IMG/VR virus record: IMGVR_UViG_3300045988_145033
Coordinates: 64,001 to 128,000 of that record
Origin: a virus
Strand: one strand, 5' to 3'
Length of the DNA: 64,000 nucleotides
A program made the position numbers and the translations under genes. The notes under the pieces were generated by a model. The model was not told where the DNA came from. It made no database searches and saw only the letters and a list, made by a program, of their open reading frames with translations. Shown here piece by piece: positions 3,570 through 60,270 of this stretch; within the stretch, counting starts at the first letter, position 1, and every line of letters begins with the position of its first letter.

Positions 3570-3581
3570 TAAAGTGGTGTT
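3570..3581 (-). promoter_or_regulatory. Late-type promoter motif AACA-CCACTT-TA-GTTTTAAAG upstream of 1121..3538
   Basis: Matches the window-wide consensus AACA-N6-TA-G(A/T)TTAAAA, located ~35 nt upstream of the RBS. Confidence 0.5.
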
Positions 3582-3584
3582 TGT

Positions 3585-3606
3585 GATACTCCCGCTAGGG
3601 AGTATC
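3585..3606. terminator. Hairpin GATACTCCC-gcta-GGGAGTATC overlapping the PolB-like stop codon
   Basis: Perfect 9-bp inverted repeat followed by T-rich sequence. Confidence 0.55.
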
Positions 3607-6012
3607 ATATTGTAGGGTTTTACTTTCTATAGATATATGAAAATTACCAACTTTTGGAACTTTTACATCATACTCAAATACGAATACATCATCAGAATGT
3701 ACAGTACAAGTAACTTCATCTGACAGGAATATATGCGTTCTTGCCGTTACATCTATCTTCTTATTATCCATTTTAATAGTAGTTATAATATTAGGATTTT
3801 TAGATACTTCATCTATTGTATCTTTATTTATGAATTTACAAGATACTATTTCTTTCTTTAAAAATCTATTAGGTTTTATATAGTCTTCTATATGGTTTTT
3901 ATATTCACCATCTATTTTAACTATATAACCGTCTTCATCTTCTTTTAAAGTAAATAATTCTCCTAATGATTTATAAGGAAATTTACTATCGGGAGTGAAT
4001 GTAACTTCATATAGTGAACCATTTATAACTTGACGAGATACATTATTTCTTATATGAAATGATGATAAATTAGATACAACTCCCGCTTTAATATCAGAAG
4101 CATCTACTTTTGTATTATCAAGTCTTCCTAAAACCTTTCTTACAGCTTCGGCATATTTAAACTCATCTTTTCCTAAGAATAATGTATATGCTGGAGTTTC
4201 TTCTCTTACATATGGTTTATTTGTAGCTATATTATATGTAAACGATGCTATCTCTTTTGCTGTAGGAAGATTAAAGAATGCTGTTCCTATTATATCTACG
4301 TCTTTATCAATAAGTGCTTGTATCCCTTTTTCTACAGGTATTTCCTTTTCTTCATTTAGTTCTATTTTTTCTATTCTACCGTCTAAGCTATCTTTTGATA
4401 CATTAGTGTGCTCAACTATCATAGGATACATAGACAGAGCATCTGCGTCCATGACTTTATTTAAGAATTTATTATTAGGTAAATCATCTAAAAATGGAGT
4501 CATTTCCTTTTTAAATTTATTAGGGTCAGAACATAATCCGCCTGCTATTTGTATTCTATTTGTAAGAACGTCATATGTACTTTCAATAGCATCATCTACT
4601 TCACGTAGTCTTTCTATTATTCTCTCAGCAGATTCATTCTTTGTCATAATAAGCTTATTAACATCATTAGACATTATATATCCCATTCTCTTACATAAGT
4701 GGAAGAATGTATTGGTAACTGAAGTCATAGGAGAGTAAACTCTATCAAACTCAGTTCTTACTATAAATCTTCTAGTTAAAAGTGAAGATATATCATCTGT
4801 CTTTATATCATTAAATGCCATAACTATAACGTCAATCATATTGTACATTACATAAACCCAATAATCTTCATAAGGAAGTTTACCGATAAAGTCAGTTATG
4901 TGAGCATATGATAGTTTACCAAAACCTAACTCATGCTTTGATATAGCGTCTAAGCTCTCTCTTTCTAATTGGTCTTGTGGACGAAGTCCAAAGTAACTTT
5001 GTTGTACATCTACTATCTTAGTAAAAGACTCTGAATTATAATTGTGTCTTCTCTTAGCGGCTTTAGGGTCTTCGTTTCTATAGTTAAAATCAAATCTATT
5101 TCCAACTTTAGGGTGACAGAATAGCTTATGCTGAGGAATTCCTAATTTGTCTGCTCTATATTGTGTATGACGAACGTCGTATACAGCATTAAATATTCCA
5201 AGATACATAGGTTTATAAACTTGTATCATTTGATACCAACTGTCTTCTATCATCTCTTTTTCTGTATTATACCAAGATATAATAATCTTCATTTCTTCTA
5301 CAATCTTTTTAAATCTAGGAGCTAGAAGATTTCTAGTTTTATCGTCCATTTGAGCTTCATCTATTATCTTTAAAAGCATAGATTTAAACTCATCTTTAAA
5401 TTTATCTTCATTTTCTTTTATTTCGTGAAGTCTTTTAAAATCGTCTCTTATTATAGAAAATACATGACAAGTATTTGTACTATCATCATAATAAGTAGAG
5501 CAGGTAATAGGTTGAAGTTCTTCTATATCTGTATTTAAAACATCAGTTTCTATATCGTAATAACCTTTCTTTAAATTCTTAATAGGTGGTAAGTCATTAT
5601 AATCCTTGACTCCATCTTTTTCTTCATAACCTAAACTATCAAGATAATCCATTATTGCTAAATCTTCTATAAATAAGTCTGAGCCAATAGTTCTTCTATC
5701 TAAGAAAATATGGTCATATTTTATCTTCTTTTCTTTAAGTCCTCTTTTAAACTTATCTCCCATATTTAAAATCTTAGCTATATCGAAACCTCTCCATTTA
5801 TAAGATACTTTTTGTATAACTAGATTACCAAGAGATATAGTCTCTCTATAGTAATCTGGAGCATCTCCCTTTACAAAGTAAGCTGGTACTTTAGGGTGCT
5901 TTATTTTCTTTACATATTGCTTACCAGTTTCTGTATCGTACATAAATATATTATAAACATCTTCATCTTTATTATAATATGAGTTATAGAATAAATCTTT
6001 TGCTTTCTCCAT
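3595..6012 (-). CDS. Family-B DNA polymerase-like protein: 3'-5' exonuclease domain plus palm motif A. Motifs B (KxxxNSxYG) and C (YGDTDS) are not recognisable.
   Basis: Exo I at YYDIETDV; Exo II at LGIFNAVYDV; Exo III at YNMIDV plus LDAISKHELGFGK. Motif A-like DADALSMYPMI. The track ORF starts at GTG (6021); ATG at ~6012 with GAGGTGA RBS is the more likely start. Confidence 0.55.
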   Translation of the reverse strand: MEKAKDLFYNSYYNKDEDVYNIFMYDTETGKQYVKKIKHPKVPAYFVKGDAPDYYRETISLGNLVIQKVSYKWRGFDIAKILNMGDKFKRGLKEKKIKYDHIFLDRRTIGSDLFIEDLAIMDYLDSLGYEEKDGVKDYNDLPPIKNLKKGYYDIETDVLNTDIEELQPITCSTYYDDSTNTCHVFSIIRDDFKRLHEIKENEDKFKDEFKSMLLKIIDEAQMDDKTRNLLAPRFKKIVEEMKIIISWYNTEKEMIEDSWYQMIQVYKPMYLGIFNAVYDVRHTQYRADKLGIPQHKLFCHPKVGNRFDFNYRNEDPKAAKRRHNYNSESFTKIVDVQQSYFGLRPQDQLERESLDAISKHELGFGKLSYAHITDFIGKLPYEDYWVYVMYNMIDVIVMAFNDIKTDDISSLLTRRFIVRTEFDRVYSPMTSVTNTFFHLCKRMGYIMSNDVNKLIMTKNESAERIIERLREVDDAIESTYDVLTNRIQIAGGLCSDPNKFKKEMTPFLDDLPNNKFLNKVMDADALSMYPMIVEHTNVSKDSLDGRIEKIELNEEKEIPVEKGIQALIDKDVDIIGTAFFNLPTAKEIASFTYNIATNKPYVREETPAYTLFLGKDEFKYAEAVRKVLGRLDNTKVDASDIKAGVVSNLSSFHIRNNVSRQVINGSLYEVTFTPDSKFPYKSLGELFTLKEDEDGYIVKIDGEYKNHIEDYIKPNRFLKKEIVSCKFINKDTIDEVSKNPNIITTIKMDNKKIDVTARTHIFLSDEVTCTVHSDDVFVFEYDVKVPKVGNFHISIESKTLQYDTP

Positions 6013-6056
6013 ATCAATCACCTCAAATCGCTGTTTTTCACATCTAAAATATTAAA

Positions 6057-6068
6057 AACACCAAATTA
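6057..6068 (+). promoter_or_regulatory. Late-type promoter motif AACA-CCAAAT-TA upstream of 6094..7137
   Basis: Consensus match in a 72-bp divergent region. A mirrored AACA-GCGATT-TG on the minus strand faces the PolB-like gene. Confidence 0.45.
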
Positions 6069-6093
6069 TTATAAAAATAAGGAGGTTTTATAA

Positions 6094-7137
6094 ATGCTTA
6101 TAATTCCTAGAAGTATAAGAAATACAAATGACACTTATGGTAGTGGATACTTTGGAACTTTAAAAGTATCCGTTGATAATACTAAGCAAATGTCTGAGAT
6201 AGAAAAGAAGTATGCACCTTATATAGCGAAGATGAATACTCTTGTTAAAGAAATAGATACAGAAATTAAAAAGTCTGAAAGAAGAGCAAAAGAAATACTT
6301 GAAGCTTTTCCTAAGAAAGTTGAGATAGAAACAGAGTCTACAAAAAATAGAGTTTCTTTATACACAACTAAGATGAATGCTTTAAAGACTATTATGGGTG
6401 CTATAAAAGAGATTAAAGAAACTGAAATGAAAGAGCAGAAAATGGTTTATGATATGACAGGGAAGAATGTAGATATTAAGGGTGGTAATGTCAATATGAA
6501 AGCAAACATTGCATCTTTATATGATTCTAATATAACTTCCGCTCCTAGAACTATACACTCTTTGCAAGGATATGGTAAACCAATACCTTCAAGTAATGGA
6601 GAATTTGTTCCTAATCCTACTACAGCACAAAATGTAGATAATAGCGATATGGTAGAAGAAGGAGCAATGGAAGAAAATTACTCAAGAGATGTAAAAACTG
6701 ACGGAGCTTTCACTTCTTTATTTGGGAAAGTAGAAACTCCTGATAGTTCTAAATATATTCAAGGTAATAATACTATGAAAGATTACGAAAAGGTTGATAA
6801 TAGATTCTCGTATGGTGCTGCACAAACTGGACTTAAAGCTAAGTATTTAGAAGATACAGAAGTTAAATGTCATTGGGACGATGACGAGAAGATAGGTTGG
6901 CTTAGAACTTATTCAAAAGACACAGGGAATATAGTATCAGAAGAAGCCTTTATTTCACCAGCATATCACGGAGTTTTAAATAAAATGGTATCAGGAGGAC
7001 TGACTTATGCTATATCTGAAACTGATGATACTTACTCTATCGTACCTGATAAAGTAGACAATGCTCCTATAGCTATAGTAGATGATTTACTTGAAACTTA
7101 TAAAAGACAAGATTTAAGAGATAGACTTAAAAAATAA
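6094..7137 (+). CDS. Hypothetical protein (347 aa), a lone plus-strand gene inside a minus-strand block
   Basis: ATG with AAGGAGG RBS. Flanked by a late-type promoter and a bidirectional terminator. Confidence 0.75.
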   Translation: MLIIPRSIRNTNDTYGSGYFGTLKVSVDNTKQMSEIEKKYAPYIAKMNTLVKEIDTEIKKSERRAKEILEAFPKKVEIETESTKNRVSLYTTKMNALKTIMGAIKEIKETEMKEQKMVYDMTGKNVDIKGGNVNMKANIASLYDSNITSAPRTIHSLQGYGKPIPSSNGEFVPNPTTAQNVDNSDMVEEGAMEENYSRDVKTDGAFTSLFGKVETPDSSKYIQGNNTMKDYEKVDNRFSYGAAQTGLKAKYLEDTEVKCHWDDDEKIGWLRTYSKDTGNIVSEEAFISPAYHGVLNKMVSGGLTYAISETDDTYSIVPDKVDNAPIAIVDDLLETYKRQDLRDRLKK

Positions 7138-8092: not shown

Positions 8093-8190
8093 GTTTTACC
8101 TCCCAAGGTATTAAATTTAGACGTCGGAACTCTTAAGCCCTCTTAAGTTTATTCCTTATCTCTACTTTTATTATATATAATTGAAATGAA
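8093..8190 (-). promoter_or_regulatory. Early-type promoter/leader module A (TTTCAATTATATATAATAAAAGTAGAGATAAGGAATAAAC ... hairpin CTTAAG-aggg-CTTAAG ... AAATTTAATACC-RBS)
   Basis: One of four near-identical ~100-nt copies (plus two degenerate ones), each directly upstream of an RBS. Contains a TATAAT-like box. Confidence 0.55.
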
Positions 8191-9494: not shown

Positions 9495-10154
9495 TTATTC
9501 TTCCCATGGATATTCGTCGCCGTCACTACTTTCGTAATCTTCTTGAATTTCCACTTTCTTATTACCATAGTTTGCACTATTCTTTTTAGCTAGTTTTTCT
9601 TGGTGAAAACTCATAACTGTAGAAGTACCATTAAGTATCGCTTCTAACATATTTACAAATGTATTAGTTTCAGATGGTCCACCAAGTCTTACCATATCTT
9701 CCATTCCACCATCACTTGCAAATAGTTTTACTCTATTTGTATCCATAAATGGACATATGATTTTAGAATTTTGTATAACTTGTCCGTCTACTACCGAGTA
9801 TATAGCTGTACCAGTTACATACTTATCTTCTACATTCATTCCAAGAATTCCAAATGCTGTTTCTTTTCCTTGCATTACAAACTCAAATGGAACTTTATCT
9901 ACCATTTTCTTTCTAGCTTGTCTTACCATCATAGTTAAATCTTCAAAATCATTATTAGAAATGAAGTGAGATTTCTCAGGTTTTTTAGCAAAAGGACCTT
10001 CTTCAGTTCTTTTGTAAACTGAGAATAACATTCCTCTTTCAAATAATTTAACACTCATTCTTTTACAATTTTCAATTTCCTTTGTAAAAAATACAAATGA
10101 GATAAGGTGTGTTGATACTAAATCTTCCGGATTTTTCTTTTGTTGTTCTGCCAT
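9495..10154 (-). CDS. Hypothetical protein (219 aa)
   Basis: ORF with RBS ATAGGAGG and a late-type promoter upstream. Confidence 0.7.
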   Translation of the reverse strand: MAEQQKKNPEDLVSTHLISFVFFTKEIENCKRMSVKLFERGMLFSVYKRTEEGPFAKKPEKSHFISNNDFEDLTMMVRQARKKMVDKVPFEFVMQGKETAFGILGMNVEDKYVTGTAIYSVVDGQVIQNSKIICPFMDTNRVKLFASDGGMEDMVRLGGPSETNTFVNMLEAILNGTSTVMSFHQEKLAKKNSANYGNKKVEIQEDYESSDGDEYPWEE

Positions 10155-10181: not shown

Positions 10182-10193
10182 TAAAGTCGTGTT
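10182..10193 (-). promoter_or_regulatory. Late-type promoter AACA-CGACTT-TA-GATTAATTTTAAATAGGAGG
   Basis: Full consensus including the GATTAA extension. Confidence 0.5.
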
Positions 10194-10202: not shown

Positions 10203-12737
10203 TTAGATTTTTTGTATATTTATCTTATATGATTTATTCTTATCATATTCTATATTAACTATTTCTGGTATTACAGATGGGTCATCTGGGTCATAATTTG
10301 CTTCTATGTATTGATAGTCTGAGTTGTAACCATTTATACCTACAAACTCTATCTTTGTAACGTCAACTATATCATCTCTTACCTTTCTTATTAAATCTGA
10401 TACGTGGAAAGTCTCATCATTTATAAAGTCTATCTTAGAGAAGTAATCTCTTATATAATCCTTCACATAGTTCATATCTACTGTAGCATTATAAGCAAGA
10501 GCAACTTTGAAGTTTAAAGATATATTAGTTTTATCAAGTCTTTCATTATCATTTCCGATAATATGGTTTTTAGAAGTACCATACGTGTTTGCAAACTTTA
10601 AAGTTGACACGAAATTAGTTTGAGTTTCAAGCCACTTAGTATGAATATAGTCCATTTGAGCATATACATCATTGTATACAGTATACCCATTATTTTCTAC
10701 ATAATCATATCCAAATAAAGGGATAGATAAAAGTTTTAACTTATTAGCATCTATATCTTCTATTTGTACATATGAGTTATCTGTATACTGTCTTATAAGT
10801 GATATATCATTAAGTGAGAATACATTTATAAGTCCTTTTCCTACTATATTAGGAACACCATAATCACTTGCTTGAACTGTATCATTCTCTTGGTCATCTT
10901 GTACTATTATCTTTATAGATTTAAAGTTTATCTTAGTTGTAACCTCATTTAAAACTCCCGCATTCATAAGTTTTAAATCTATTTTACCATCTCTTATAAA
11001 GTATGCTGTTTCTATCTCAGCTTCATATAAATACATATCATTCTTTTCATTATACGATTTCATGACACAAGGAATATAACCTATATAGTTTGTATCTTCT
11101 GCTTGGAAAGATACATTTATCTTAAGTATTCCTTTGTCATTTATTGAACCGTCTGGAAGCTTTTCGTGAAACTTAACTAAGTCATCTTTATTTTCAGATG
11201 CTAAATTCGTCATAATATTAAAGTGAAGCTTTATATTTCCTTTAGGTTCTCTTGTTATATACACAGCATTTGCCATAAATGAATATTTCGATTTATCATA
11301 GTTATATTCAAACTCACAAACTGAACGTCTATCTATATAAGTTTCATAAGTTTCTACAACTCTTTTGATTCTATTTATAATATACAGTAAAGATGGTGTG
11401 TAATCAAATATGTCATTTGTTTCTTTTGTATCCCTGTGAAATGCTGTATCAGAACCAAGCGGTGCACGGAAATGTGCCATTTCAGGAACTTTATACCAGT
11501 TATCAAGCTTCTCAAGAGTTGATATATCTATAAGACAATTTAAAGTATTAGTAGGAACTAAATACTTGTCATCTACGGTTGTAAGAGGAGCAAATATAGA
11601 ATATACTCTCATCTTCCAATCATCACGAGTTTTTATAACTTTATAATTCTTTTTATTTGCTGAGAAGTGTAAAGATAAATCATAGTCTGTAATTAGTGAG
11701 TTTCTTGTGTGAAGTGAATCTATTATCTTCTTTCTTAAAGATTCTAAATCATCTTCATCAGAACCCGGAGTAGAATACTTCTGAGCTGTATCTGCTGTTA
11801 TATAAAATGGTAGTTCTTCTCCGTCACTATCTTCTACTATTATATCATCACCGATATATTCAAAGTTTGCTTCCTTACCTTTTGTAAGATACATAGAAAG
11901 CTCTATTATGCTATCTCTTACAGGTACGAAATTTCCTCTATATCCGCGATTTGTAAGAGTTATTTTATTTTGGTTCAAATCATAGTATATAGTAGGTTTA
12001 TCAGGAATTGACTTATCATAATACATAGACTTCTGAAGTCTTTTGACTTCATTTGTAAATTCAGACACTCTATAATATGGAGTAAAATCTATAAGCTCAT
12101 CTTTATAAGTTATAGGATATACGTCAGTTGTAGAATCTATATAACGATAAGTTTCTATCTGTCTTTTATATTGATAAAGTATTAAAGATAGTATCATTCT
12201 CTTACCTTGCTTTATAACTTTTATATTTGGATTTACTACTTTAGATATAGGATTATATAAAGCTTCTTTATCATATCTTGCAGTTATAGCCATTTGACCT
12301 TCTGGGTCATATATTTGTATATTTATAGGATAATCAAGAGAATATATAAATTTCCCTATCTTTACTTCTAAAGTGTGAGGTATAGTATATCTGTAAAGTT
12401 TAGGATTTATTCTTTCAGCATTTTTAAGTACATCTTCTATAAATATTGTAAATGTAAATACACGAGAAGAAGGTGTAGCTAGTTGAAAGGATACATCTGC
12501 AACTTTATTCCACTTAAATAAACTATCTTTAAACTCAGCAGTTACTGGAAACATCTCACGAGAAGATATATAAGATGAATATGATACTATATCATATAAT
12601 TCTCCCAAACCTTGAGTTTGATAAAAGGCTGTAGATAAAGCGTGTACTCTATCAGGGGGTAAACCTAAAGTATCTAAAACCACAGCCATAGATTTTAGAA
12701 ACTCCTCTTTTGTCGAGGTAAATTTATCACTTAACAT
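10203..12737 (-). CDS. Hypothetical large protein (844 aa), likely virion structural
   Basis: Co-transcribed directly downstream of 12748..14679 with a 10-nt gap. No recognisable motifs. Confidence 0.7.
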   Translation of the reverse strand: MLSDKFTSTKEEFLKSMAVVLDTLGLPPDRVHALSTAFYQTQGLGELYDIVSYSSYISSREMFPVTAEFKDSLFKWNKVADVSFQLATPSSRVFTFTIFIEDVLKNAERINPKLYRYTIPHTLEVKIGKFIYSLDYPINIQIYDPEGQMAITARYDKEALYNPISKVVNPNIKVIKQGKRMILSLILYQYKRQIETYRYIDSTTDVYPITYKDELIDFTPYYRVSEFTNEVKRLQKSMYYDKSIPDKPTIYYDLNQNKITLTNRGYRGNFVPVRDSIIELSMYLTKGKEANFEYIGDDIIVEDSDGEELPFYITADTAQKYSTPGSDEDDLESLRKKIIDSLHTRNSLITDYDLSLHFSANKKNYKVIKTRDDWKMRVYSIFAPLTTVDDKYLVPTNTLNCLIDISTLEKLDNWYKVPEMAHFRAPLGSDTAFHRDTKETNDIFDYTPSLLYIINRIKRVVETYETYIDRRSVCEFEYNYDKSKYSFMANAVYITREPKGNIKLHFNIMTNLASENKDDLVKFHEKLPDGSINDKGILKINVSFQAEDTNYIGYIPCVMKSYNEKNDMYLYEAEIETAYFIRDGKIDLKLMNAGVLNEVTTKINFKSIKIIVQDDQENDTVQASDYGVPNIVGKGLINVFSLNDISLIRQYTDNSYVQIEDIDANKLKLLSIPLFGYDYVENNGYTVYNDVYAQMDYIHTKWLETQTNFVSTLKFANTYGTSKNHIIGNDNERLDKTNISLNFKVALAYNATVDMNYVKDYIRDYFSKIDFINDETFHVSDLIRKVRDDIVDVTKIEFVGINGYNSDYQYIEANYDPDDPSVIPEIVNIEYDKNKSYKINIQKI

Positions 12738-12747: not shown

Positions 12748-14679
12748 TTATTTCTTAATATAGTCTACGACATCATTATAAGTATTTTGTACAGAATTTG
12801 CGTATCCTGTTACTTTATCTTTAACAGCTCCCGCCATACTTTGTGCTTTAGAAACCGCCGCATCATATGCTCCAGACGCCGTATCCATACCTTTATTCAT
12901 AAGTTTTTCAGCCGTTCCTCTTGGGTCTTTTATAGCATCTAGTATACCACCAGTTACAGTTTTAAAGAATCCGTCTTTCTTAACTACTGTAGCTTTAACT
13001 TTAGGTGCAACTTGAGCTGATGAGAATGGTACAAGTTTATATCTTCCTGTAGCATTATCATATATTACTTCAGCACCATTAGTCCAATAGTATTGTAAGT
13101 CTCTGTCTTCTTTTGGAAGCCACCTGTCATAATATTTTTTAGGCACATATCTTTTTTGCATTTCGTTAAACTCATACAAAGCATTTATATCAAATGGCTT
13201 AAATACAGAAGACGCAAAAGACACAGTTATTTCTCTTATTTCTCTATTTATCATACCTTGATTTGAAAATACCGAAAACGGTATAGTCTTAGGAAAGTTT
13301 CCTACAAGTTTTGCCCAGTATGTAATAGATAAGTCATCTTCTTCTGTACAGAATATAAATATAGGACAGCTATAACTCATTCTATTGGCAACTGTATCAT
13401 CTGGGTGCTGTATTATAAGTCCGTCTTTAACTCTATCTATATATGTAACCCAAGCGTATATAAGCTTAAATGCTTCTGCTTGTCTATCCATAGCAAAAGT
13501 CAAGTTTATTGGTATATTTATCATAGATGAACCGTACGATATCCCATACTCTTGAGCTGAACCATATCTATTCGCAGGAGAGTTAGAAACGTCAAGAGAA
13601 GCATCTTGGAATGATATTCCAACTATTCTATTTTGAAGAGATGTCATCCAAGGAGTAGCACCGTCTATTCTTCCATTAAGTTGTAAGAATAAATCGTAAT
13701 CTCTTAGAATGAACTCAGCAAGGTTATAGTCATTTCTTACACTTTCTGCAAGTTTATTTGTATCTTCCTCTTGCAAGTTACAAGTAGGCTTTCCTATAAA
13801 AATATGAGTTCTTGTATGAGCAAGAGTATTATCTATAAGTGTAACACCTAGCCTATTTACGAAGTTACGTTCCAAATCTTTACCTTTTGATATATTGCCA
13901 GTCATACCATAAGAGTTTTTAATAGTTTCTGCAAGAGATGCAAAGGTATCATCTGAGAATATATCAAATCCGTCATATGAAGGATATGAAGCCGCAGGAG
14001 AATATCCAGAAGCATTCCAGAATCTTTGGAAGGCGTCTATTTTAGGTTTTCCTGTTGTCTTACCATTCATAGCTCCAGCTTCTCCCCAGCCACTTAGTGA
14101 AGCACCACGAAGAGCAGCCATAAGTTTATCCTTATCGTCTTTATTTCCTGAAAGTCTATCCATATCTTGAGCATCAGGTCCTGTATATATTTCATGATAA
14201 GGGTCTCTATTTTTAAGAAGTTCTGATTTCATAGAGCCTATAAGTCCACCAAATGTACTATTAAGTGCCATACCTAGTGGATTTCCTAAGAAATTATTTA
14301 TTTTACCTAATATTCCTCTTTGCAGTTTTGACTCTATCTTTCCTATGGTTGAGTTAATTTTATTATTTATTCTTTCTTCGACTCCACCTACTACACTATT
14401 TATTCTACCTTGAACTAAACCTTCTATATTTGAACTTCCGGTTCTTATGGCATTATCTACAGCACTACCTATACTACCTATGGCGTTATTAACAAAGTTA
14501 CCCGGTATCTCTTGAGCATTTTGCCATACTTCATTTAATCTATCAGTACCGAAGTTTGATTTAAGCTTATTTGCGTAAGTATCATATGTCTCTTTTGCTG
14601 TCTCTTGGTTCTTTTTAAACTGTGCCGTTGCGACGTCAGATAAACTTCCACCAGCTGATTTTTGGTTATCATCTGCCAT
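12748..14679 (-). CDS. Putative virion protein (643 aa) with Gly-rich helical N-terminal and C-terminal segments
   Basis: Its promoter and 5' UTR are nearly identical to those of 53808..55640 (GTGAAAAACAGCCCTTTAGTT-AAAAATTATAA). It carries Gly/Ser/Asn-rich repeats. Confidence 0.7.
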   Translation of the reverse strand: MADDNQKSAGGSLSDVATAQFKKNQETAKETYDTYANKLKSNFGTDRLNEVWQNAQEIPGNFVNNAIGSIGSAVDNAIRTGSSNIEGLVQGRINSVVGGVEERINNKINSTIGKIESKLQRGILGKINNFLGNPLGMALNSTFGGLIGSMKSELLKNRDPYHEIYTGPDAQDMDRLSGNKDDKDKLMAALRGASLSGWGEAGAMNGKTTGKPKIDAFQRFWNASGYSPAASYPSYDGFDIFSDDTFASLAETIKNSYGMTGNISKGKDLERNFVNRLGVTLIDNTLAHTRTHIFIGKPTCNLQEEDTNKLAESVRNDYNLAEFILRDYDLFLQLNGRIDGATPWMTSLQNRIVGISFQDASLDVSNSPANRYGSAQEYGISYGSSMINIPINLTFAMDRQAEAFKLIYAWVTYIDRVKDGLIIQHPDDTVANRMSYSCPIFIFCTEEDDLSITYWAKLVGNFPKTIPFSVFSNQGMINREIREITVSFASSVFKPFDINALYEFNEMQKRYVPKKYYDRWLPKEDRDLQYYWTNGAEVIYDNATGRYKLVPFSSAQVAPKVKATVVKKDGFFKTVTGGILDAIKDPRGTAEKLMNKGMDTASGAYDAAVSKAQSMAGAVKDKVTGYANSVQNTYNDVVDYIKK

Positions 14680-14712: not shown

Positions 14713-14724
14713 TAAAGGGCTGTT
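14713..14724 (-). promoter_or_regulatory. Late-type promoter AACA-GCCCTT-TA-GTTTAAAAATTATAATTAAAAGGAGG
   Basis: A 21-nt core identical to the promoter at ~53760 on the opposite strand. Confidence 0.55.
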
Positions 14725-44023: not shown

Positions 44024-44080
44024 ATTTGTGTAACGAACAATTTTTTGATATAAATTAATATAATTCAGGAGGTTTAAAAT

Positions 44081-47438: not shown

Positions 47439-47536
47439 TTTAAACCTCCTCAGGTATTTTAAATTTTGGCATTAAGAACTCTCAACCCTTGTTAAGTTTA
47501 TTCTCTTGCTCTTACTTTTATTATATATAATTGAAA
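47439..47536 (-). promoter_or_regulatory. Early-type promoter/leader module C (hairpin CTTAAC-aagg-GTTGAG with a G-U pair)
   Basis: Near-identical to A, B and D. Confidence 0.55.
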
Positions 47537-49867: not shown

Positions 49868-49979
49868 AGAATTTACCTCCTTTAAATTTTTATTTGACTT
49901 TGGCTTGATTGCCTTGTCTTATGTATATAATATATAGCTTATTATAAGAATGCTGTGGAACGTAGAAAAAAAAAATAAA

Positions 49980-50007: not shown

Positions 50008-50241
50008 TTATTCATTTAAAGTTAATCTGCGTTTTAGAAGATATATATAATCTTCTAAGATTTTAATATCTGTAGAGAAGTCTTCTCCAAGATATTTATT
50101 TTTTATTGGTGCGTCTGGATTATGTATCCAGTTTGAAGCCTTCATTTGTTCTGAGACTTCTCCTTTCTTTAGTGCAAACAGTCTTCCTTCGGCTGTTTTA
50201 ATTTTGTTTTGGATTACTTCGATTTCTTTTTTATTTAACAT
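50008..50241 (-). CDS. Hypothetical early protein (77 aa)
   Basis: Directly downstream of early module D. Confidence 0.65.
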   Translation of the reverse strand: MLNKKEIEVIQNKIKTAEGRLFALKKGEVSEQMKASNWIHNPDAPIKNKYLGEDFSTDIKILEDYIYLLKRRLTLNE

Positions 50242-50336
50242 ATTATCTACCTCCTCAGGTATTAAATTTAGACGTCGGAATTCTCAACCCTTGTTAAGTT
50301 TATTCCTTATCTCTACATTTATTATATATAATTGAA
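50242..50336 (-). promoter_or_regulatory. Early-type promoter/leader module D (hairpin CTTAAC-aagg-GTTGAG). The most similar copy to module A.
   Basis: GGTATTAAATTTAGACGTCGGAA is shared verbatim with module A. Confidence 0.55.
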
Positions 50337-50826: not shown

Positions 50827-51315
50827 TTATTTGTCATCCATTGTAGCGTGGTCTGAGTCAATGATAGTTTGTTCAGGTTCTATTCTTTCGTCATTCATAT
50901 CACCTAAAGTAACTTCACCGTCAGCTTTATTTTCAGTTTCAGGCATTATATCTGTAGCTCCTACTTTAATAGAGTCTCCATCAATAACAGCACCTGCTCC
51001 TGCTTCTAATTGGTCTATTAATGATTCGTGGAATTTAGTAGCTTTGTCTATTTTACCTAAAGCTTCAGCATATTCAACTTCAACATTAACACTTTCTACA
51101 GTGTCACTTCCCGGTTCAACTGGTATATCTACAGTTATACTTGGAACTTCAGGAGCATCAGCATCTACATTAACTTCAGCCGTGTCACTTGCTTCTATTG
51201 AAACAGTTTGAGCATCATCTAAAGTGTCAGCTGGAGCTACTTCAGATTCTCCGTAAATATTTGGTTTATTGAATAAAGAGAAGTCTACTCCGTCTTTACC
51301 TATTTTTTGATACAT
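50827..51315 (-). CDS. Highly acidic hypothetical protein (162 aa)
   Basis: ORF with AGGAGG RBS. D/E/V/A-rich. Confidence 0.65.
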   Translation of the reverse strand: MYQKIGKDGVDFSLFNKPNIYGESEVAPADTLDDAQTVSIEASDTAEVNVDADAPEVPSITVDIPVEPGSDTVESVNVEVEYAEALGKIDKATKFHESLIDQLEAGAGAVIDGDSIKVGATDIMPETENKADGEVTLGDMNDERIEPEQTIIDSDHATMDDK

Positions 51316-51370
51316 ATTTATACCTCCTAGTTATTTTTAATTTTATTAATTTCTCTATAAAAATGTTAAT

Positions 51371-52352: not shown

Positions 52353-53708
52353 CTATCTCTTCACCTCCGCTAAATCATCTAATAGGAACTTAGGGTCTTT
52401 TTGAGCTCCATCTATTGTAAGTTTTAGAAGATATAGTATTATAGGAACTATTAAGAAATCCTCTAAAGTATCATCAACTTCCAAATCTACAGTTTCATCT
52501 AAGATACTTGCTGGGTCTTCAGCTATTCTCATAATAGATGATATAATATCACTATCGCTATCCAAAAGCTTTTCTGAACTTTTCTTTAAACTGTCAAGCT
52601 CTACAAGAGTTGGAATCTTTTTAACATTCGAGCTATCCTTTATTAGATACTCAGCTGTCTTATCAGACGGTATTCCTATAGACATTAAAGCTACATTTGG
52701 AGATGCGAATTGATTTAACTGAGTTAGATATCTTTGCTTAGGAAACCATTTCATAAGCTTTGTATATCTTCCACCTACTTCAAATTCCTTTACATCAAAT
52801 CTTGAAAAATTACCCAAAAAAGAAGATAAGTCATCATAAGTTATATCACCATACATTGATTTTTCAAAATCAAATGGTGTCATATCCTCATGTGTGAGTA
52901 TAAGCTCACCTACATACTTTTGTGAAAACTCATACATTATAGGACGCATTCTTCTTTGAAACTCTACAAGCATAGGGGAGTAGTATATCATATCTATTGG
53001 GTGCTCGGGATTATCTTCACATACATGAGAATATAAAAGTAAATTATATTCTTCATTGTAAAACGTTTCCAAGTATTCATTATTAATTCTTGCATAAGTT
53101 GCAACTAGCTTTCTTATATAAGCTACCGTTCCTATATCTATGATAGTTACTTTATTGTCTCCAACATTACCCATCACAAAATCGTAATTTCCTACAGTTT
53201 GCTTTTCAAGTTGCTTAAACTTATCAGGGTCTTTGTCAGATACAGCATAATAAGTATAAGTTATATGATGATGAGGTTCTTGAAGTATCGTATTAGCATC
53301 AGCTCTTGTCACACGAAACATAAGTTCCTTTGCTCCCGGTAAGGATATTACAAGCAAATCTCCTACTTGTGGATAAAACCCCGGAAGAATTAAACTCTCA
53401 TTATCAAGCTCTATAGTTATACCTTTTATATCCGTCTTTCTAGTTTCCCTATTAAACTCTTTAAAGGCATAAAGCGGAGTATTATTAATTCTATTATATC
53501 TTACAGGTGAGTCTGGTGATAACCAGTCATATACTTGTCCCATACCTTTAGAACCCGTACTATCAGCATTTGATATATTATAGTATCTACAGAAGATAGG
53601 TTTTGACTCCATTCTTCTTACATTGTATTTATAGTATCTTCTCGCTTGATTTCTGAGCATCTTATTCGTCGTATCAACCGTTTGGTCTTTTAAATTCAAG
53701 GATTTCAC
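52353..53708 (-). CDS. Hypothetical protein (451 aa)
   Basis: ORF with RBS GGAGGTGAA. Confidence 0.7.
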   Translation of the reverse strand: MKSLNLKDQTVDTTNKMLRNQARRYYKYNVRRMESKPIFCRYYNISNADSTGSKGMGQVYDWLSPDSPVRYNRINNTPLYAFKEFNRETRKTDIKGITIELDNESLILPGFYPQVGDLLVISLPGAKELMFRVTRADANTILQEPHHHITYTYYAVSDKDPDKFKQLEKQTVGNYDFVMGNVGDNKVTIIDIGTVAYIRKLVATYARINNEYLETFYNEEYNLLLYSHVCEDNPEHPIDMIYYSPMLVEFQRRMRPIMYEFSQKYVGELILTHEDMTPFDFEKSMYGDITYDDLSSFLGNFSRFDVKEFEVGGRYTKLMKWFPKQRYLTQLNQFASPNVALMSIGIPSDKTAEYLIKDSSNVKKIPTLVELDSLKKSSEKLLDSDSDIISSIMRIAEDPASILDETVDLEVDDTLEDFLIVPIILYLLKLTIDGAQKDPKFLLDDLAEVKR

Positions 53709-53759
53709 CTCCTATTAAAATTGTAAATTTCTCTAAAAAGGTGTTCGATACAGTGAAAA

Positions 53760-53771
53760 ACAGCCCTTTAG
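53760..53771 (+). promoter_or_regulatory. Late-type promoter AACA-GCCCTT-TA-GTTAAAAATTATAAATAAAATAGGAGG
   Basis: A 21-nt core identical to the minus-strand promoter at ~14713. Confidence 0.55.
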
Positions 53772-53807: not shown

Positions 53808-55640
53808 ATGGAAGATATAACTTTATATGGAAATGAAGTTCTACCAGAAGTAAGAGAATATATGTATGCTGAAGCTGAAATGACAGTATCGTATAATTTA
53901 ATACAAGATTATTTCTTCAATCTTATGGATAGCTTTAGAGATGAAACTATATACTATGGTGAAGCTGATGATGATGGTGAAGTTAAAACTGGATTTTTTG
54001 CGAAGATAGGACAAATGTTTGTAAAGATGTGGAAAGCTATTATAAACTTTATTAAAACTGTATTTAGAAAAACTTGGGAAATACTTTCAAAACCATTCAG
54101 TTTTAAAATGAATAGAGCTAATAACTCGTCTGGTGGCGGAGGTGGCGGTGGCTCATCAACACCTACTGAAAGAACTGCTGGTGGAGGCGGTGCTGAAGAA
54201 ACTGCTAATAGAATAACTACTACAGATTTTAGACAATACCAAGAAATTGCAAACTTAAGAAGAAATCTAGTTTCATATCTTGGAAAAATGTCTACGGTAG
54301 AAAAGGATAAACTTTTAGCTACATTTGCTATAATGAAGGATGATAGTGTAAAAAATATAAGTCTTACTAAGATAGACAATAAAGGTACATACGATACACA
54401 CATAAAAAATATGGAAGCTATAAAGAAGAACTTGCTTGAAAACTTTAAACTTATATACGAATATGATGAGTTAAAGGATACAGATGCTATTAAAAACGTA
54501 GCAGCTACTCCAGCCATGAACCTTGTGTATAAGGAAGTACCAAAGCATTCTTTAATAAATGTAAAATATGAAAAGCCTAAAGAAGATGAAGAAGTAGTTA
54601 AAAAAGGAATAGCATCTCTATTCGGGATACAAATGATAGCTAAAAAGATTATAGAATGTACATCTAAAGTTACAGATACGACACAAACTGTTCAAAAGAA
54701 AAAGTCTGAAGCTAGTATAGCTAAAGATATTAAGAGTTTGATTAATACAATATTAGCGATAAATATGAGTGATACTGGAACTCACACTGGACTTATAACG
54801 GATAAGGATAATGATATAAAGGTATTTGGAGACTATAATATAGTAGAGCTTTCTAAAGCTGTTAATGTTATATACGTATACTCATTTGGAGAAGATGCTT
54901 TAAAATTACTTAAAAAAGACCCTACAGGTATAATACAAGCTAAATTAAATTCAAATACAGTAATAAAGCCAGAAGCATATGAAACTAATAAAGGTATATT
55001 CTTAAAGAAAATGGTTAATGTCAATATAGCTGACAAGGTGTTAGAAACTGTTCAAATTAAAGCCGATGGAAATCAACCAGAATCTTTAACTTCTATTCTT
55101 AGTAAAGAATTTAAAGCAGCCGAAGGCAAAAAACCAGCAACAACATATGATGCACTAAGAGACCAGCTACTTAATGCTTTAGCGACATTTAAAGATTTAA
55201 GAGAGAATAATGAAAAGAAAGATAACGATGGTAAAACTGAATATGATAAAATAACAGATGAAAATGAAGCAGTTAAAGCGTCTGATATGTGGAAAGGTAT
55301 AGTAACTAATGCTGCAAAGATAATTAAGAATGTAGCTAGTAGTGCACCAGAAATGGCAAGAACTATAACTAGAATAGATACAGCCATAGTTATACATAAG
55401 CACTTATATAATACTATTCTTAGTGTATCGGTTACTGCTAACTTATGGGACGTATATTGTCATATGTATAAGGTAGCTAAAGACAACTTAGAGAATAATA
55501 AAGAGTTGATAAAGGATACAACAGGAAGCGATGACGCTACTAAAGAGCACAAACTAATAAAAGAAAAGTTAGCAGCATTAGATACAGAAGTTGCAGATTT
55601 AAAAGTTCAACTACAAAAAGAACTTAAAGGAAAACAATAA
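53808..55640 (+). CDS. Paralog family member 1 (610 aa). N-terminal Y-x-E repeats, amphipathic/TM helix, poly-Gly linker and a long helical body. Putative internal head protein.
   Basis: LYGNEV, MYAEAE and YYGEADDDG. Then FFAKIGQMFVKMWKAIINFIKTVF. Then SSGGGGGGGSSTP. Confidence 0.7.
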   Translation: MEDITLYGNEVLPEVREYMYAEAEMTVSYNLIQDYFFNLMDSFRDETIYYGEADDDGEVKTGFFAKIGQMFVKMWKAIINFIKTVFRKTWEILSKPFSFKMNRANNSSGGGGGGGSSTPTERTAGGGGAEETANRITTTDFRQYQEIANLRRNLVSYLGKMSTVEKDKLLATFAIMKDDSVKNISLTKIDNKGTYDTHIKNMEAIKKNLLENFKLIYEYDELKDTDAIKNVAATPAMNLVYKEVPKHSLINVKYEKPKEDEEVVKKGIASLFGIQMIAKKIIECTSKVTDTTQTVQKKKSEASIAKDIKSLINTILAINMSDTGTHTGLITDKDNDIKVFGDYNIVELSKAVNVIYVYSFGEDALKLLKKDPTGIIQAKLNSNTVIKPEAYETNKGIFLKKMVNVNIADKVLETVQIKADGNQPESLTSILSKEFKAAEGKKPATTYDALRDQLLNALATFKDLRENNEKKDNDGKTEYDKITDENEAVKASDMWKGIVTNAAKIIKNVASSAPEMARTITRIDTAIVIHKHLYNTILSVSVTANLWDVYCHMYKVAKDNLENNKELIKDTTGSDDATKEHKLIKEKLAALDTEVADLKVQLQKELKGKQ

Positions 55641-57322: not shown

Positions 57323-58765
57323 TTATTTTAAAAATTCAGCGAAATTAGTTCTAATGAATTCTTCGTTTTCTTTATCGTCTCCAGATACAAGTTGTAATAG
57401 ATTTTTCTCTTTACCTTTTATCTTTCCAGTTATGTTATTTAGTATATCTCTTCTCATGTTATGGAATATTTTACTATCTATTACATTTTTAACAACTTGT
57501 CCAATTTGTACCGAATACATAACTGAAGATGTCATAGCTATCGTAACGGTAATCCATTTATTTATTTCAGATATTATACCTTTATCTTCAATAGCATTAT
57601 TCTCATCTAAGTTATCTACTATAGACTTTATAGAATTTTGATATCCTGATAGTTTTCCAATTTTTTCTTTTATTGTTTTTATTTTACTATCGTCAATATC
57701 TTTACCTTCTGCTAGTTCACTAAATATACTATATATTTTTGATTGATTGCTTATTTTTTCAGCGTTAAATGAGATTTGTAAATTCATTCTTTCATCATCA
57801 GCACTATCATTATCAAATTCCCAAGTAAAATTATAAAATGTGCTCATTAAATTCTTATGACTTTCTGATTTTATTTGTAGAACTTTAGATATATCACCGT
57901 AGTTTAAAATGTTCTTTGGAGATGCACTGTCAGTATATAGTTTAGATAAAACTTCGTTCGAATCTTTTTCAAATTTATCCACAGACTCTTTATTACTGAA
58001 ATCAACACTTTGAGTTTTTAATGGAGCTAGTAAAGCTATTAAATCTTCTTGCACATCTTTATATAAAGACTTTGTAGTATTTGCAATATTAGAACTTACA
58101 CCTATAGCTGTACCGTCGACTTTCCCGATATATCTATTCACATTTAATTGAGTTGCAGCAGATAGTAGTAATATACCCGGTGCATTTAATACCGTTTCTA
58201 ATATGAATTTAGGAAAAGTATCGTCATTGTCACTAGATACAATCTTTTTAAACTCAGCATTTGATTTATTATAGCTCTCATCATTTAATAAAACGACTGG
58301 TTCGCTCATATTGCTGTATTTATCTCTTATCGTAGACAATGTCGCTCCTTCGAAAACTTTATTCATAAGTTCAGACCTTATTTTTAATTTAGGTGTGCTA
58401 GAAGATGAGCCTCCACCACCTCCACCACCGAAAGAAATACCATTACCTTTCTTTCTTCTGAAATACATAATAAGTCCTATAATTACTAAAAGTAGTAGTC
58501 CTTTTATTCCTAATACCATTTTAAGTATAATAAGTATAGCTTTCTTTATGAATACTAAAAGTGCCGCAAATATTCCTCCAACGCTTTCAGCATACATTAT
58601 TTCTCTTCTTTGATACATCTCAAGCATTACTCTACCTTCTTCTAAAGCCATATAACTTTCGCAAATAGCAAGCTCATCAACTTCAGGAATTTCAATATCA
58701 CGATGTCTGCTACTATTATCAATATCAGCTACAGACTCCATATATAAATTTACTATATTATCCAT
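57323..58765 (-). CDS. Paralog family member 3 (480 aa)
   Basis: YMESVAD and MYAESVGG; long hydrophobic GGIFAALLVFIKKAILIILKMVLGIKGLLLLVIIGLIMYF; FGGGGGGGSSSSTP linker. Confidence 0.7.
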   Translation of the reverse strand: MDNIVNLYMESVADIDNSSRHRDIEIPEVDELAICESYMALEEGRVMLEMYQRREIMYAESVGGIFAALLVFIKKAILIILKMVLGIKGLLLLVIIGLIMYFRRKKGNGISFGGGGGGGSSSSTPKLKIRSELMNKVFEGATLSTIRDKYSNMSEPVVLLNDESYNKSNAEFKKIVSSDNDDTFPKFILETVLNAPGILLLSAATQLNVNRYIGKVDGTAIGVSSNIANTTKSLYKDVQEDLIALLAPLKTQSVDFSNKESVDKFEKDSNEVLSKLYTDSASPKNILNYGDISKVLQIKSESHKNLMSTFYNFTWEFDNDSADDERMNLQISFNAEKISNQSKIYSIFSELAEGKDIDDSKIKTIKEKIGKLSGYQNSIKSIVDNLDENNAIEDKGIISEINKWITVTIAMTSSVMYSVQIGQVVKNVIDSKIFHNMRRDILNNITGKIKGKEKNLLQLVSGDDKENEEFIRTNFAEFLK

Positions 58766-58796: not shown

Positions 58797-58808
58797 TAAA
58801 ACGCTGTT
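58797..58808 (-). promoter_or_regulatory. Late-type promoter AACA-GCGTTT-TA-GATTAAAAACAAAAAAAAATGGAGG
   Basis: Full consensus upstream of 57323..58765. Confidence 0.55.
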
Positions 58809-58837
58809 TTAAAGGTATTTATAAGATAAAAAAAAAT

Positions 58838-58855
58838 AATACCCCGAAGGGTATT
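58838..58855 (-). terminator. Terminator AATACCC-cgaa-GGGTATT
   Basis: A9 tract plus a perfect stem after the stop of 58871..60109. Confidence 0.6.
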
Positions 58856-58870
58856 ATTTTATCATATAAT

Positions 58871-60109
58871 TTATTCCTTAGCTGTAGAAGTTTGCACATT
58901 TTTCAATTTATCTAAAGATGTACATAAAGGTTTTACATAACCGATAAATCTATCAAGTTGTATTTTACCTGTGTTGAATGCAGTTACAACAGCTGTAGAA
59001 ACTCTTGTCATGTATGTAGAGTACACAGTAGATATTCTCATAAGAGCAGACGCGTTATCTTTTACATTTTGATTTTCATTTTCTTTATCAGTACGGTCAT
59101 TATAAATACCTTCGGCTTTATTTTCGATTCTTGCCATTAATTTCTTCAAGTCGTCGATTTTTTCTTTATATTCAGATACACCTTTATCTAAAGCGTCTTC
59201 TATATCATCATATACGATATTTTTAGCCGCACTATTTAATTTAGCTATAGCTTTAGGTATATCTCCTCCTTTCTTAACTGTGTCAGCTTTAGAATCCCAT
59301 AATTTTGCAATAGCTTCTGCTGGTTTTTGAGTTGAAGTGTCACCGAATATAGCACCATTTAAGTCAGGGTCAGTAATACCACCATTTTTTATAGCACTAT
59401 CGTATATGTATCTGACTAATGATTCGTCGTCTCTCATATGTCTAGCTTGTTGAACATCTTTAAATAGCCCTTCAACAGTTTTACCAGCACCTTCACTAGC
59501 AGATTTTAAATCTGTAATCTTTTCTAGTTCTTCAGTTAATTTTGAAATCGTTACAGTTTCTCCAGTTTTATCAGTTAAATTAATTTGTAGTAAAGTTTTA
59601 GTTCTTGTTGTAGCACCCTTAGCTAGTTTACTTCCTATAGTACCCATAATTATATTAGATATAGCTTCGTAAGCATAATCTTTAAAACTTATTTTATCGT
59701 CTTCATTGAAAGTTGTAAGTTTAGAAACTTTGTCTAATACATCTTTAATGTATTGAATATCCATTCTGTAGTTTTTGTTAGCTTTGAATCTTCCTAATAA
59801 TTTGATTACAAAGTCTTTTGCTTTTTCATACAATTTAACGATAGCTGCTATAATCTTTTTGAAGAACCCACCTTCAGCTTCTCCATACATAATAGCTCCT
59901 ACTAAAGATAGTCCTTTAGAATCCATTAATTCTTGAGTAGCTTCAGCATATAAAACACCATTTCTTTCCATATTTGCAGACGCTTCAGCATAAGCCATGA
60001 ATGATTCCATTAAGTCGGCTTCAGATGCTTCAGGTACTCCACCGTATAATGTTCCATGTTGTGGTAATGTTGCTTCACGATACAATTTCATGAATGTATT
60101 TTCTGACAT
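58871..60109 (-). CDS. Paralog family member 4 (412 aa)
   Basis: LYREAT, LYGGVPEA, AYAEASA, LYAEATQ and MYGEAEGG repeats, followed by FFKKIIAAIVKLYEKAKDFVIKLL. Confidence 0.7.
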   Translation of the reverse strand: MSENTFMKLYREATLPQHGTLYGGVPEASEADLMESFMAYAEASANMERNGVLYAEATQELMDSKGLSLVGAIMYGEAEGGFFKKIIAAIVKLYEKAKDFVIKLLGRFKANKNYRMDIQYIKDVLDKVSKLTTFNEDDKISFKDYAYEAISNIIMGTIGSKLAKGATTRTKTLLQINLTDKTGETVTISKLTEELEKITDLKSASEGAGKTVEGLFKDVQQARHMRDDESLVRYIYDSAIKNGGITDPDLNGAIFGDTSTQKPAEAIAKLWDSKADTVKKGGDIPKAIAKLNSAAKNIVYDDIEDALDKGVSEYKEKIDDLKKLMARIENKAEGIYNDRTDKENENQNVKDNASALMRISTVYSTYMTRVSTAVVTAFNTGKIQLDRFIGYVKPLCTSLDKLKNVQTSTAKE

Positions 60110-60153
60110 ATTTTATACCTCCTAGTTATTTTAAAATTTATTTTGTTTTAATC

Positions 60154-60165
60154 TACACCTATGTT
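60154..60165 (-). promoter_or_regulatory. Late-type promoter AACA-TAGGTG-TA-GATTAAAACAAAATAAA
   Basis: Full consensus upstream of 58871..60109. Confidence 0.5.
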
Positions 60166-60270
60166 TATTTTCCTTGAAATAGGTATACTTTTCATATAAT
60201 TTGTTAGCTTGTACGCAAAAGGGTCAGAAACAAGGAAAATAGTTACATTAATATATAAGGAGGTAGCAAA

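Follow-up and report, generated by a model that had tools for sequence, protein, structure and literature searches.

AACA-N6-T(A/G) sites in phages of Fusobacterium as probable late promoters of a phage-encoded, AR9-type RNA polymerase

We analyzed a 64,000-nt stretch of viral DNA (positions 64,001 to 128,000 of the IMG/VR record IMGVR_UViG_3300045988_145033; hereafter the window) in which a short motif, AACA-N6-T(A/G), recurs ahead of genes on both strands. Our data indicate that these sites are likely to serve as late (or middle/late) promoters for an AR9/PBS1-type non-virion RNA polymerase (nvRNAP) that the phage itself encodes, a reading that rests on sequence comparison. Until now this promoter has been known only from AR9, a Bacillus jumbo phage with uracil-DNA. 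Judged by its proteins, the window phage is a distant AR9 relative with homologs of both AR9 RNA polymerases (RNAPs), and it very probably transcribes its own genes with two multisubunit RNAPs. The evidence lies in the distribution, orientation, and spacing specificity of the motif, its conservation among relatives, its avoidance within genes, and the homology of the polymerase genes. By analogy with AR9, we infer the start site, the pairing of enzyme with motif, and recognition of the template strand.

The window belongs to a lineage of Fusobacterium phages

The window has a G+C content of 31% and tightly packed open reading frames (ORFs) on both strands; by our own gene calls its intergenic part is 4,865 nt (7.6%), and no tRNA genes or Rfam families were found in it. 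Positions 20700-24500 share 91.6-92.9% DNA identity with the Fusobacterium nucleatum phages JD-Fnp1, 4, 6, and 7, whose genomes are 175-180 kb long. By gene order, the window corresponds to approximately 41.6 to 107.5 kb of JD-Fnp4, reverse-complemented. The complete JD-Fnp4 genome (L001) served for comparison, and Bacillus phage AR9 (first 250 kb) was both reference and positive control. IMG/VR contigs with 71% beta-prime identity to the window lineage are referred to as clade B; L027, first taken for a remote clade, belongs to the JD-Fnp4 lineage.

AACA-N6-T(A/G) sites lie between genes and face start codons

We found 22 matches to AACA-N6-T(A/G) in the window, compared with 115 ± 10 expected under a Markov-1 model and 55 ± 6 under a Markov-3 model. 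Twenty of these are intergenic and two are coding, a density ratio of approximately 120, and 19 of the 20 intergenic copies face a start codon 12-67 nt downstream. The narrower pattern AACA(G/C)C-N4-TA has 10 matches (4.35 ± 1.96 expected), 10/10 of them intergenic. Enrichment between genes combined with depletion within genes is restricted to the N6 spacing (partly N7) and to TA and TG endings, and the N5 spacing behaves like background, with 46 of its 49 window matches lying within genes.

The mapped late promoter of AR9 is AACA-(6N)-TA/G, with the final base as the start site (PMC5312081; PMC7598289). The initial annotation of this DNA had proposed an AR9-like promoter grammar and set sites ending in TG apart as variants; the window motif does equal the mapped AR9 consensus, and since that consensus covers TA/G, the TG sites belong to the consensus itself. 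Of the 16 genes listed at that time, 14 carry the exact N6 motif, while those at 20758 and 60271 have AACA-N7-TAG. The list was also incomplete, as further sites precede ..1035, 3595..6012, 28517..29662, 50827..51315, and 52353..53699. Direct comparison bore out the reported identity of two copies, at 14713 (minus strand) and 53759 (plus strand), over the same 21 nt, GTGAAAAACAGCCCTTTAGTT.

In the alignment of JD-Fnp4 sites (n = 34), constraint is strongest at AACA and at TR, which stand a constant 6 nt apart. The core AACA-N6-T(A/G), the alternation of TA with TG, and the distance to the start codon are shared with AR9/PBS1 (Takahashivirus) late promoters; from predicted start to ATG there is a median of 31 nt in JD-Fnp4 and, measured in the same way, 29.5 nt in AR9. 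Unlike AR9, where sites gathered in this way (n = 70) show little conservation except AACA and TA, the Fusobacterium phages have an extended consensus with added conservation at T-16, A-14, A-12, C-6, T-3, T-2, and G+2. Predicted G starts are also more common than in AR9 (13 of 34 sites, with A at the other 21, versus 10 of 70). In clade B, AACA sites are kept at orthologous positions although the flanks diverge, with swaps between TA and TG in both directions.

These sites could in principle be read by the host RNAP together with a phage or host sigma-like factor, with TAG(A/T)TTAAAA playing the part of a -10 element and AACA that of an upstream extension (compare the late promoters of T4 gp55). 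From T(-1) on, TAGATT/TAGTTT bears a weak likeness to a -10 hexamer, two AACA sites overlap sigma-70-like matches, and the failure to find a homolog of the AR9 specificity subunit gp226 (see below) would fit as well. However, the position matrix of the aligned sites contains no -35-like block at -24..-19, and sigma-70-like matches (-35 TTGACA and -10 TATAAT, 16-18 nt apart) are not enriched, numbering 114 versus 104.6 ± 10 in shuffled sequence and being spread through genes. This agrees with the earlier remark that no properly spaced -35/-10 pair accompanies the sites. In addition, AACA and TR at a spacing of 6 are the grammar of the AR9 nvRNAP, and a full nvRNAP core is encoded in the relative JD-Fnp4. 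We consider transcription of these sites by the host enzyme very unlikely.

The motif has been removed from genes

The scarcity of the motif within genes was measured against synonymous-codon shuffles within each gene, which hold protein and codon usage constant. Window genes contain one sense copy (42.4 ± 5.2 expected) and one antisense copy (24.3 ± 4.2 expected). The initial annotation had held that equal frequency inside coding regions would speak against a promoter; instead there are 2 genic copies where approximately 67 are expected, which firmly favors function. JD-Fnp4 genes contain 17 sense copies versus 125.6 expected and 3 antisense copies versus 69.9, an observed-to-expected ratio (O/E) of 0.10, and several of these 20 copies are owed to imprecise gene boundaries in our own calls.

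This avoidance is specific to the motif. All twelve single-base variants of AACA have O/E values of 0.71-1.27 and are not depleted. Within genes, O/E is 0.22 for the N7 spacing and 0.41-0.50 for other spacings, which is the general level of the AACA word; AACA alone has an O/E of 0.46 (z = -26) and ranks fifth in tetranucleotide depletion, after GATC, GGCC, GCGC, and GCCC. Avoidance is just as strong in clade B genes (O/E 0.08). Two remoter lineages (45-50% beta-N identity), in which the early motif described below is kept, avoid it only mildly (O/E 0.66 and 0.44), so that strong avoidance is a trait of the ~180 kb Fusobacterium phage clades. The same test in AR9 gave 187 sense copies versus 199.6 expected and 98 antisense copies versus 115.1 (O/E ~0.9), with an O/E of 1.01 for AACA; between AR9 genes there are 118 N6 copies versus roughly 40-80 at other spacings. 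We suggest that the motif was purged from both strands of coding DNA by selection because this 6-base motif seems self-sufficient.

Other short words are depleted as well. GATC and GGCC have zero copies in the 64-kb window, and JD-Fnp4 genes contain 5 GATC versus 401 expected and 1 GGCC versus 28, with GCGC and CATG depleted too. The GATC and GGCC depletion looks like restriction-site avoidance, and the depleted words match what we take to be the sites of the classical F. nucleatum enzymes FnuEI/FnuCI, FnuDI, and FnuDIII.

AACA-N6-TR superficially resembles a bipartite restriction site, in a genome that strongly avoids restriction sites. It might then be an avoided (Type I-like) restriction site, or else a regulator-binding site or RNA leader element, and no promoter. 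A restriction target would be avoided everywhere, but the motif is enriched and oriented at a fixed distance before start codons, and 2 bases are not enough for the second half of a Type I site. A leader RNA element does not fit the antisense depletion within genes (3 versus 70 expected). We regard a function other than promoter as extremely improbable.

The phage lineage encodes homologs of both AR9 RNAPs

AR9 reads its AT-rich early promoters with a virion RNAP and its AACA promoters with an nvRNAP (PMC5312081; PMC7598289). The 930-aa ORF at 21693..24485 (plus strand) is homologous to RNAP beta-prime, as the initial annotation had claimed, but it is not an N-terminal half. Its halves match two PHROG families of "RNA polymerase beta subunit" (PHROGs 2986 and 2962). 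Residues 1-387 match AR9 g145 exon 1, the N part of virion beta-prime (29% identity, E 4e-48), residues 590-920 match AR9 g264, the C part (29% identity, E 3e-41), and the catalytic DGDLDGD (class pattern DxDGD) lies at residues 465-471. With both parts and the catalytic motif in one ORF, 21693..24485 is a fused, full-length virion beta-prime equivalent to g145 plus g264. "HEFDGD" at residue 252 was ruled out as the catalytic motif, since it aligns with PRFKSN of AR9. A Pfam search of the ORF gave no match, and a single-sequence PDB search reached only E ~0.2, with Thermus beta-prime.

Comparison of this ORF with AR9 and phiKZ RNAPs placed the AR9 group closest. In a tblastn search of 50,697 phage records, 247 had a match. 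After four Fusobacterium phages, the best were the Bacillus phages Goe21/AR9/PBS1/BpSp, Listeria LPJP1, Staphylococcus S6-like phages, and Yersinia phiR1-37, with E values of 1e-49 to 1e-29; this group includes the known uracil-DNA jumbo phages. The AR9/S6/phiR1-37 group gave 1e-31 to 1e-49, and phiKZ-like phages 1e-7 to 1e-12. Only in the 4 Fusobacterium phages among the 247 records does a single place account for at least 80% of the query; in AR9 and all 243 other matching GenBank phages, the N and C halves lie at separate genome places. Phages of the phiKZ-like group (Chimalliviridae) likewise have two multisubunit RNAPs, one of them an nvRNAP with gp68, and AT-rich early promoters. Their late consensus is TATG rather than AACA-N6-TR, and their beta-prime similarity is far weaker.

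A second fused subunit appears to lie outside the window. JDFnp4_5 (1,484 aa; JD-Fnp4 3468-7922) matches pieces of AR9 virion beta (g189) over residues 509-1477 by blastp and appears to be a fused virion beta with an extra ~500-aa N-terminal region. Thus, unlike in AR9, virion beta-prime and apparently beta are single polypeptides. The nvRNAP core is homologous to that of AR9, with four polypeptides (beta-N, beta-C, beta-prime-N, and beta-prime-C) encoded by JD-Fnp4. By blastp, JDFnp4_1 corresponds to g270 (beta-prime-N), JDFnp4_124 to g154 (beta-prime-C), and JDFnp4_27 to g089 (beta-C). A Jackhmmer search from the virion beta subunit did not retrieve the nvRNAP beta-N paralog. We assign beta-N to JDFnp4_30 from its conservation between clades, a motif, and a modeled fold: it is 71% conserved between clades, as are other core subunits, and its C-terminal end is GIIDPIGTSTSDNVGLAG, a PIETPEG-type, beta-like sequence that resembles the bacterial beta motif CPIETPEGPNIGL. 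The best match of its AlphaFold model (predicted local distance difference test score 63.9) is the beta-N chain of AR9 nvRNAP, 7s00_c (E 1.1e-4, probability 1.00), followed by second-largest subunits of cellular RNAPs and phiKZ nvRNAP.

The initial annotation had linked the AACA motif to the product of 21693..24485. This ORF matches the virion RNAP, in AR9 the enzyme of AT-rich promoters, and by analogy it would be part of the enzyme not expected to read AACA. The opposite assignment, with AACA read by the virion RNAP and an AT-rich motif by the other enzyme, draws on 21693..24485 being the sole RNAP gene in the window and on the enzyme-motif pairing resting here on analogy. In AR9, however, the virion RNAP uses AAATATATATTAT-(6N)-G and the nvRNAP uses AACA, and in the Fusobacterium phages the AT-rich motif precedes nvRNAP and small early-type genes, with AACA ahead of structural and virion RNAP genes. 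We think this swapped pairing very improbable.

Predicted early-type promoters complete a proposed AR9-like cascade

A second promoter-like class, TATATWAT-WWANN-TAR, precedes several minus-strand genes. Its pattern TATATWATWWANNTAR has 7 matches in the window versus 0.32 expected, plus 1 variant, all of them intergenic and on the minus strand. The mapped early promoter of AR9 is AAATATATATTAT-(6N)-G (PMC5312081). The window motif matches the AR9-type early consensus (ATATATATTAT), the conserved start 6 nt downstream, and the placement before early genes, the starts here being predicted. The exact and variant copies stand before small early-type genes, as in AR9; unlike AR9, the downstream block is (G)TAG or TAA and not a single G.

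In JD-Fnp4 there are ~28 early-type sites, almost all of which are intergenic and share a strand. Downstream of them lie small genes of unknown function as well as the nvRNAP genes JDFnp4_27, _28-_30, and _123/_124, and a variant precedes _1. Clades B, C, and D retain the early motif. Sites of the AACA type stand ahead of structural and packaging genes and of some replication genes. The two virion RNAP operons each have one with N7 spacing (at 20711-20723 in the window, and ahead of JDFnp4_6/_5), and clade B keeps the N7 spacing ahead of the virion RNAP operon at 20758. An AT-rich motif before nvRNAP genes together with AACA before structural and virion RNAP genes amounts to the AR9 regulatory cascade.

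The remaining gene content points the same way. Approximately 30 JD-Fnp4 proteins have AR9 homologs, comprising structural, replication, and RNAP proteins (both RNAP sets), and 11 window proteins match AR9 directly. The initial annotation had regarded the structural genes as unrelated to those of AR9, which does not hold for six window ORFs with matches at E values of 8e-5 to 2e-33: 10203..12737 (g212), 12748..14679 (virion protein g213), 17984..20659 (virion protein g260), 33724..36270 (terminase, E 2e-33), 44081..44872 (prohead protease, E 8e-5), and 52353..53699 (virion protein g165). The window DNA polymerase, DnaB-like helicase, and Mre11-like protein likewise match AR9. The two phage groups thus share an nvRNAP core, many structural and replication genes, and two promoter classes; unlike AR9, the window lineage has a Fusobacteriota host and a genome of ~175-180 kb, below the "jumbo" limit.

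A proposed transcription program and its weak points

We propose the following program. A virion RNAP would be injected with the DNA, its beta-prime being the fused product of 21693..24485 and its beta the fused homolog of the 1,484-aa JDFnp4_5, and would fire from AT-rich early promoters (TATATWAT-N6-TAR). Among the early transcripts would be those of the nvRNAP core, whose four genes (for beta-N, beta-C, beta-prime-N, and beta-prime-C) lie outside the window. The nvRNAP, with a putative sigma-like specificity subunit, would then recognize AACA at -11..-8, read by AR9 analogy as template-strand 3'-TTGT/UUGU-5', and would start at the purine after T(-1), ~31 nt before start codons. Its targets would be structural, packaging, and some replication genes, plus the virion RNAP genes themselves.

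Several points weigh against nvRNAP as the reader of AACA. The nvRNAP core genes were located only in the relative JD-Fnp4, outside the window, and the start at the terminal A or G is predicted from motif position. Since AR9 tolerates the motif in its genes, the analogy with AR9 is incomplete (O/E of ~0.9 versus 0.10 in JD-Fnp4).

A further difference from AR9 concerns the specificity subunit. AR9/PBS1 late promoters are read by a five-subunit nvRNAP with gp226, and no gp226 homolog was found in the JD-Fnp4 proteome by blastp or phmmer. Hidden Markov models (HMMs) of the gp226 family, built from 18 homologs or from 143 members (the latter collected by a profile search of 1.84 billion proteins), detected none among JD-Fnp4 proteins, nor did hhalign of the family against every JD-Fnp4 protein and against two-clade early-operon alignments. 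Gp226 and gp68 themselves share barely any sequence similarity. PHROG scans of ten specificity-subunit candidates returned no RNAP family, PDB sequence searches with JDFnp4_28, _37, and _129 returned nothing, and tblastn matches of JDFnp4_28 and _37 were restricted to Fusobacterium phages.

Two candidates were set aside. JDFnp4_131 (177 aa) has a weak match to the C-terminal region of gp226 (16.7 bits, hhalign probability 26%), and it was not accepted as a homolog. JDFnp4_129 was ruled out as an RNAP subunit, being a hypervariable, lineage-restricted early protein. Its gene (JD-Fnp4 139131-140687; L027 10001-11728) is mosaic, with 46-96% identity versus 97% for the neighboring beta-prime-C, and its product may be a host-interaction or anti-defense protein.

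The remaining difficulty is uracil. In AR9, pockets of gp226 and beta-N exclude thymine at -11/-10, and the gp226 substitution V206G accepts T (PMC9209446). All three characterized groups of phages with deoxyuridine (dU) DNA encode a dCTP deaminase of the dCMP-deaminase family (PMC12697855). A search for an HAE..PCxxC deaminase in six frames of JD-Fnp4 found none, and the same search recovers AR9 g221; homologs of Ugi and of the dTMP-phosphatase Dtm are likewise missing from JD-Fnp4. A strict requirement for dU at template -11/-10, as in AR9, is at odds with a phage lacking deaminase, Ugi, and dTMP phosphatase. JD-Fnp4 does encode an HD hydrolase and a MazG-like protein, and by beta-prime similarity its closest relatives beyond the Fusobacterium phages are all dU phages.

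We tentatively suggest that AACA-N6-TR could be read on thymine DNA by a gp226-like subunit too diverged for detection by sequence, a natural counterpart of the engineered, T-tolerant V206G enzyme, although we hold this somewhat short of probable. If AACA is read on thymine DNA, uracil dependence is a derived trait of the AR9/PBS1 branch and not a feature of the promoter class. Alternatively, uracil-DNA would be made without the deaminase of the characterized dU phages, which would be new as well.

Predicted promoter sites and other features of the window

On the minus strand, eight late-type sites have the form AACA-N6-TA. They lie at 3570..3581 (32 nt before 1121..3538, annotated as portal in JD-Fnp4), 10182..10193 (28 nt before 9495..10154), 14713..14724 (34 nt before 12748..14679, the g213 homolog; kept in clade B), 37780..37791 (35 nt before 36273..37745, which is followed by the large terminase gene 33724..36270), 51356..51367 (41 nt before 50827..51315), 53734..53745 (35 nt before 52353..53699, the g165 homolog), 58797..58808 (32 nt before 57323..58765), and 60154..60165 (45 nt before 58871..60109). 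Minus-strand AACA-N6-TG sites lie at 1066..1077 (predicted start 1066, 31 nt before gene ..1035, the N-terminus of a 2,978-aa giant protein of JD-Fnp4), 6024..6035 (12 nt before 3595..6012, a DNA polymerase homologous to AR9 g132), 20681..20692 (22 nt before 17984..20659, the g260 homolog; kept in clade B), and 29709..29720 (47 nt before 28517..29662, Mre11/SbcD-like and homologous to AR9 g002; kept in clade B).

Plus-strand AACA-N6-TA sites lie at 6057..6068 (26 nt before 6094..7137, back to back with 6024), 38716..38727 (28 nt before 38755..40212), 40897..40908 (42 nt before 40950..42704), 42796..42807 (32 nt before 42839..43204, MazG-like), and 53759..53770 (38 nt before 53808..55640, back to back with 53734). 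Those with TG lie at 29675..29686 (67 nt before 29753..30700; TA in clade B) and 44036..44047 (34 nt before 44081..44872, the prohead protease gene homologous to AR9 g114). An orphan AACA-N6-TG at 45711..45722 occupies a 293-nt intergenic gap (45703-45995) with no same-strand gene called downstream. The two AACA-N7-TAG spacing variants are at 20711..20723, 35 nt before the operon of 20758..21681 and 21693..24485, and at 60229..60241, 30 nt before 60271..63417. The first gene of that operon (20758..21681, plus strand) encodes 307 aa without a Pfam or PHROG match and ends 12 nt before the beta-prime ORF, with which it is presumably co-transcribed.

Two copies are genic. An antisense copy of AACA-N6-TR (22304-22315, minus strand) lies within the virion RNAP beta-prime ORF; it is also present in JD-Fnp4 (86120-86131) and was not seen in clade B. 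An AACA-N6-TG copy at 32567..32578 (plus strand) lies in the 3' end of 30713..32836, has a counterpart at this position in clade B (L017 20745), and is possibly an internal promoter firing into a 601-nt non-coding region. This region (32837-33437), beside the terminase operon, contains T(A/G)GGTGTCC three times and has no tRNA or Rfam matches. Similar T(A/G)GGTGTCC copies occur in JD-Fnp4 non-coding DNA near 14.9 kb and 127.3-127.5 kb. The region could serve in packaging or replication, or it could give rise to a non-coding RNA transcribed from the conserved 32567 site. JD-Fnp4 also has clusters of 2-4 orphan AACA-N6-TG sites, ~140-270 nt apart, at 13253-13536 (minus), 14639-14971 (plus), and 127150-127672 (plus), all in large non-coding regions without tRNA genes.

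Early-type sites, all on the minus strand, lie at 8162..8177 (TATATAATAAAAGTAG, resembling the AR9 early consensus and followed by a conserved leader hairpin and a short ORF), 17078..17093 (51 nt before 16173..17027), 26803..26818 (41 nt before 25659..26762), 38371..38386 (before 37858..38292), 47512..47527 (before 47187..47438), 49919..49934 (before 49505..49867), and 50313..50328 (before 50008..50241), with the variant (ATTATATATAATAACTATAG) at 47109..47119 before 45996..47039. The 5' leaders after the sites at 50313, 47512, 38371, and 8162 (for example 38330-38370, minus strand) share a 6-bp hairpin with an AAGG/AGGG loop. The same leader occurs in JD-Fnp4 at 57112, 57774, 60999, 70116, 99581, 132933, and 154570. 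Across 12 leaders, 5 of the 6 pairs show compensatory changes (CTTAAG-AAGG-CTTAAG versus CCTGAG-AAGG-CTCAGG), and the flanking GGAA/TTCC stem may also covary. Between 36000 and 55900 there are 21 terminator-like hairpins with T runs (6.3 ± 2.7 in shuffles), situated at gene ends just upstream of promoters, several with the stem GGTGGGGTT..CCTCACC.

Significance

The paper describing JD-Fnp1-5 mentions neither polymerases, promoters, nor jumbo phages, and the library we searched held no paper linking Fusobacterium phages with nvRNAP, multisubunit, or virion RNAPs. In public metagenomes, the gp226 family forms 510 clusters at 50% identity (E <= 0.001), which indicates that nvRNAP systems of the AR9 type are much more common than one would judge from the few phages in culture.

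If our reading is true, common oral and gut phages, represented by many ~180 kb metagenome contigs, would be independent of host transcription, and the AR9 promoter grammar would extend to another host phylum and to genomes smaller than the jumbo limit. It raises the questions of whether uracil dependence is intrinsic to AACA recognition, and why one lineage purges from its genes a 6-base promoter word (O/E 0.04-0.10) of which AR9 genes keep hundreds of copies. The fused subunits of the virion RNAP are relevant to how the split polymerases of jumbo phages evolved. F. nucleatum is linked to colorectal cancer, and phages against it are under development; the two motifs would allow nearly all transcription units to be mapped when these phages are annotated or engineered.

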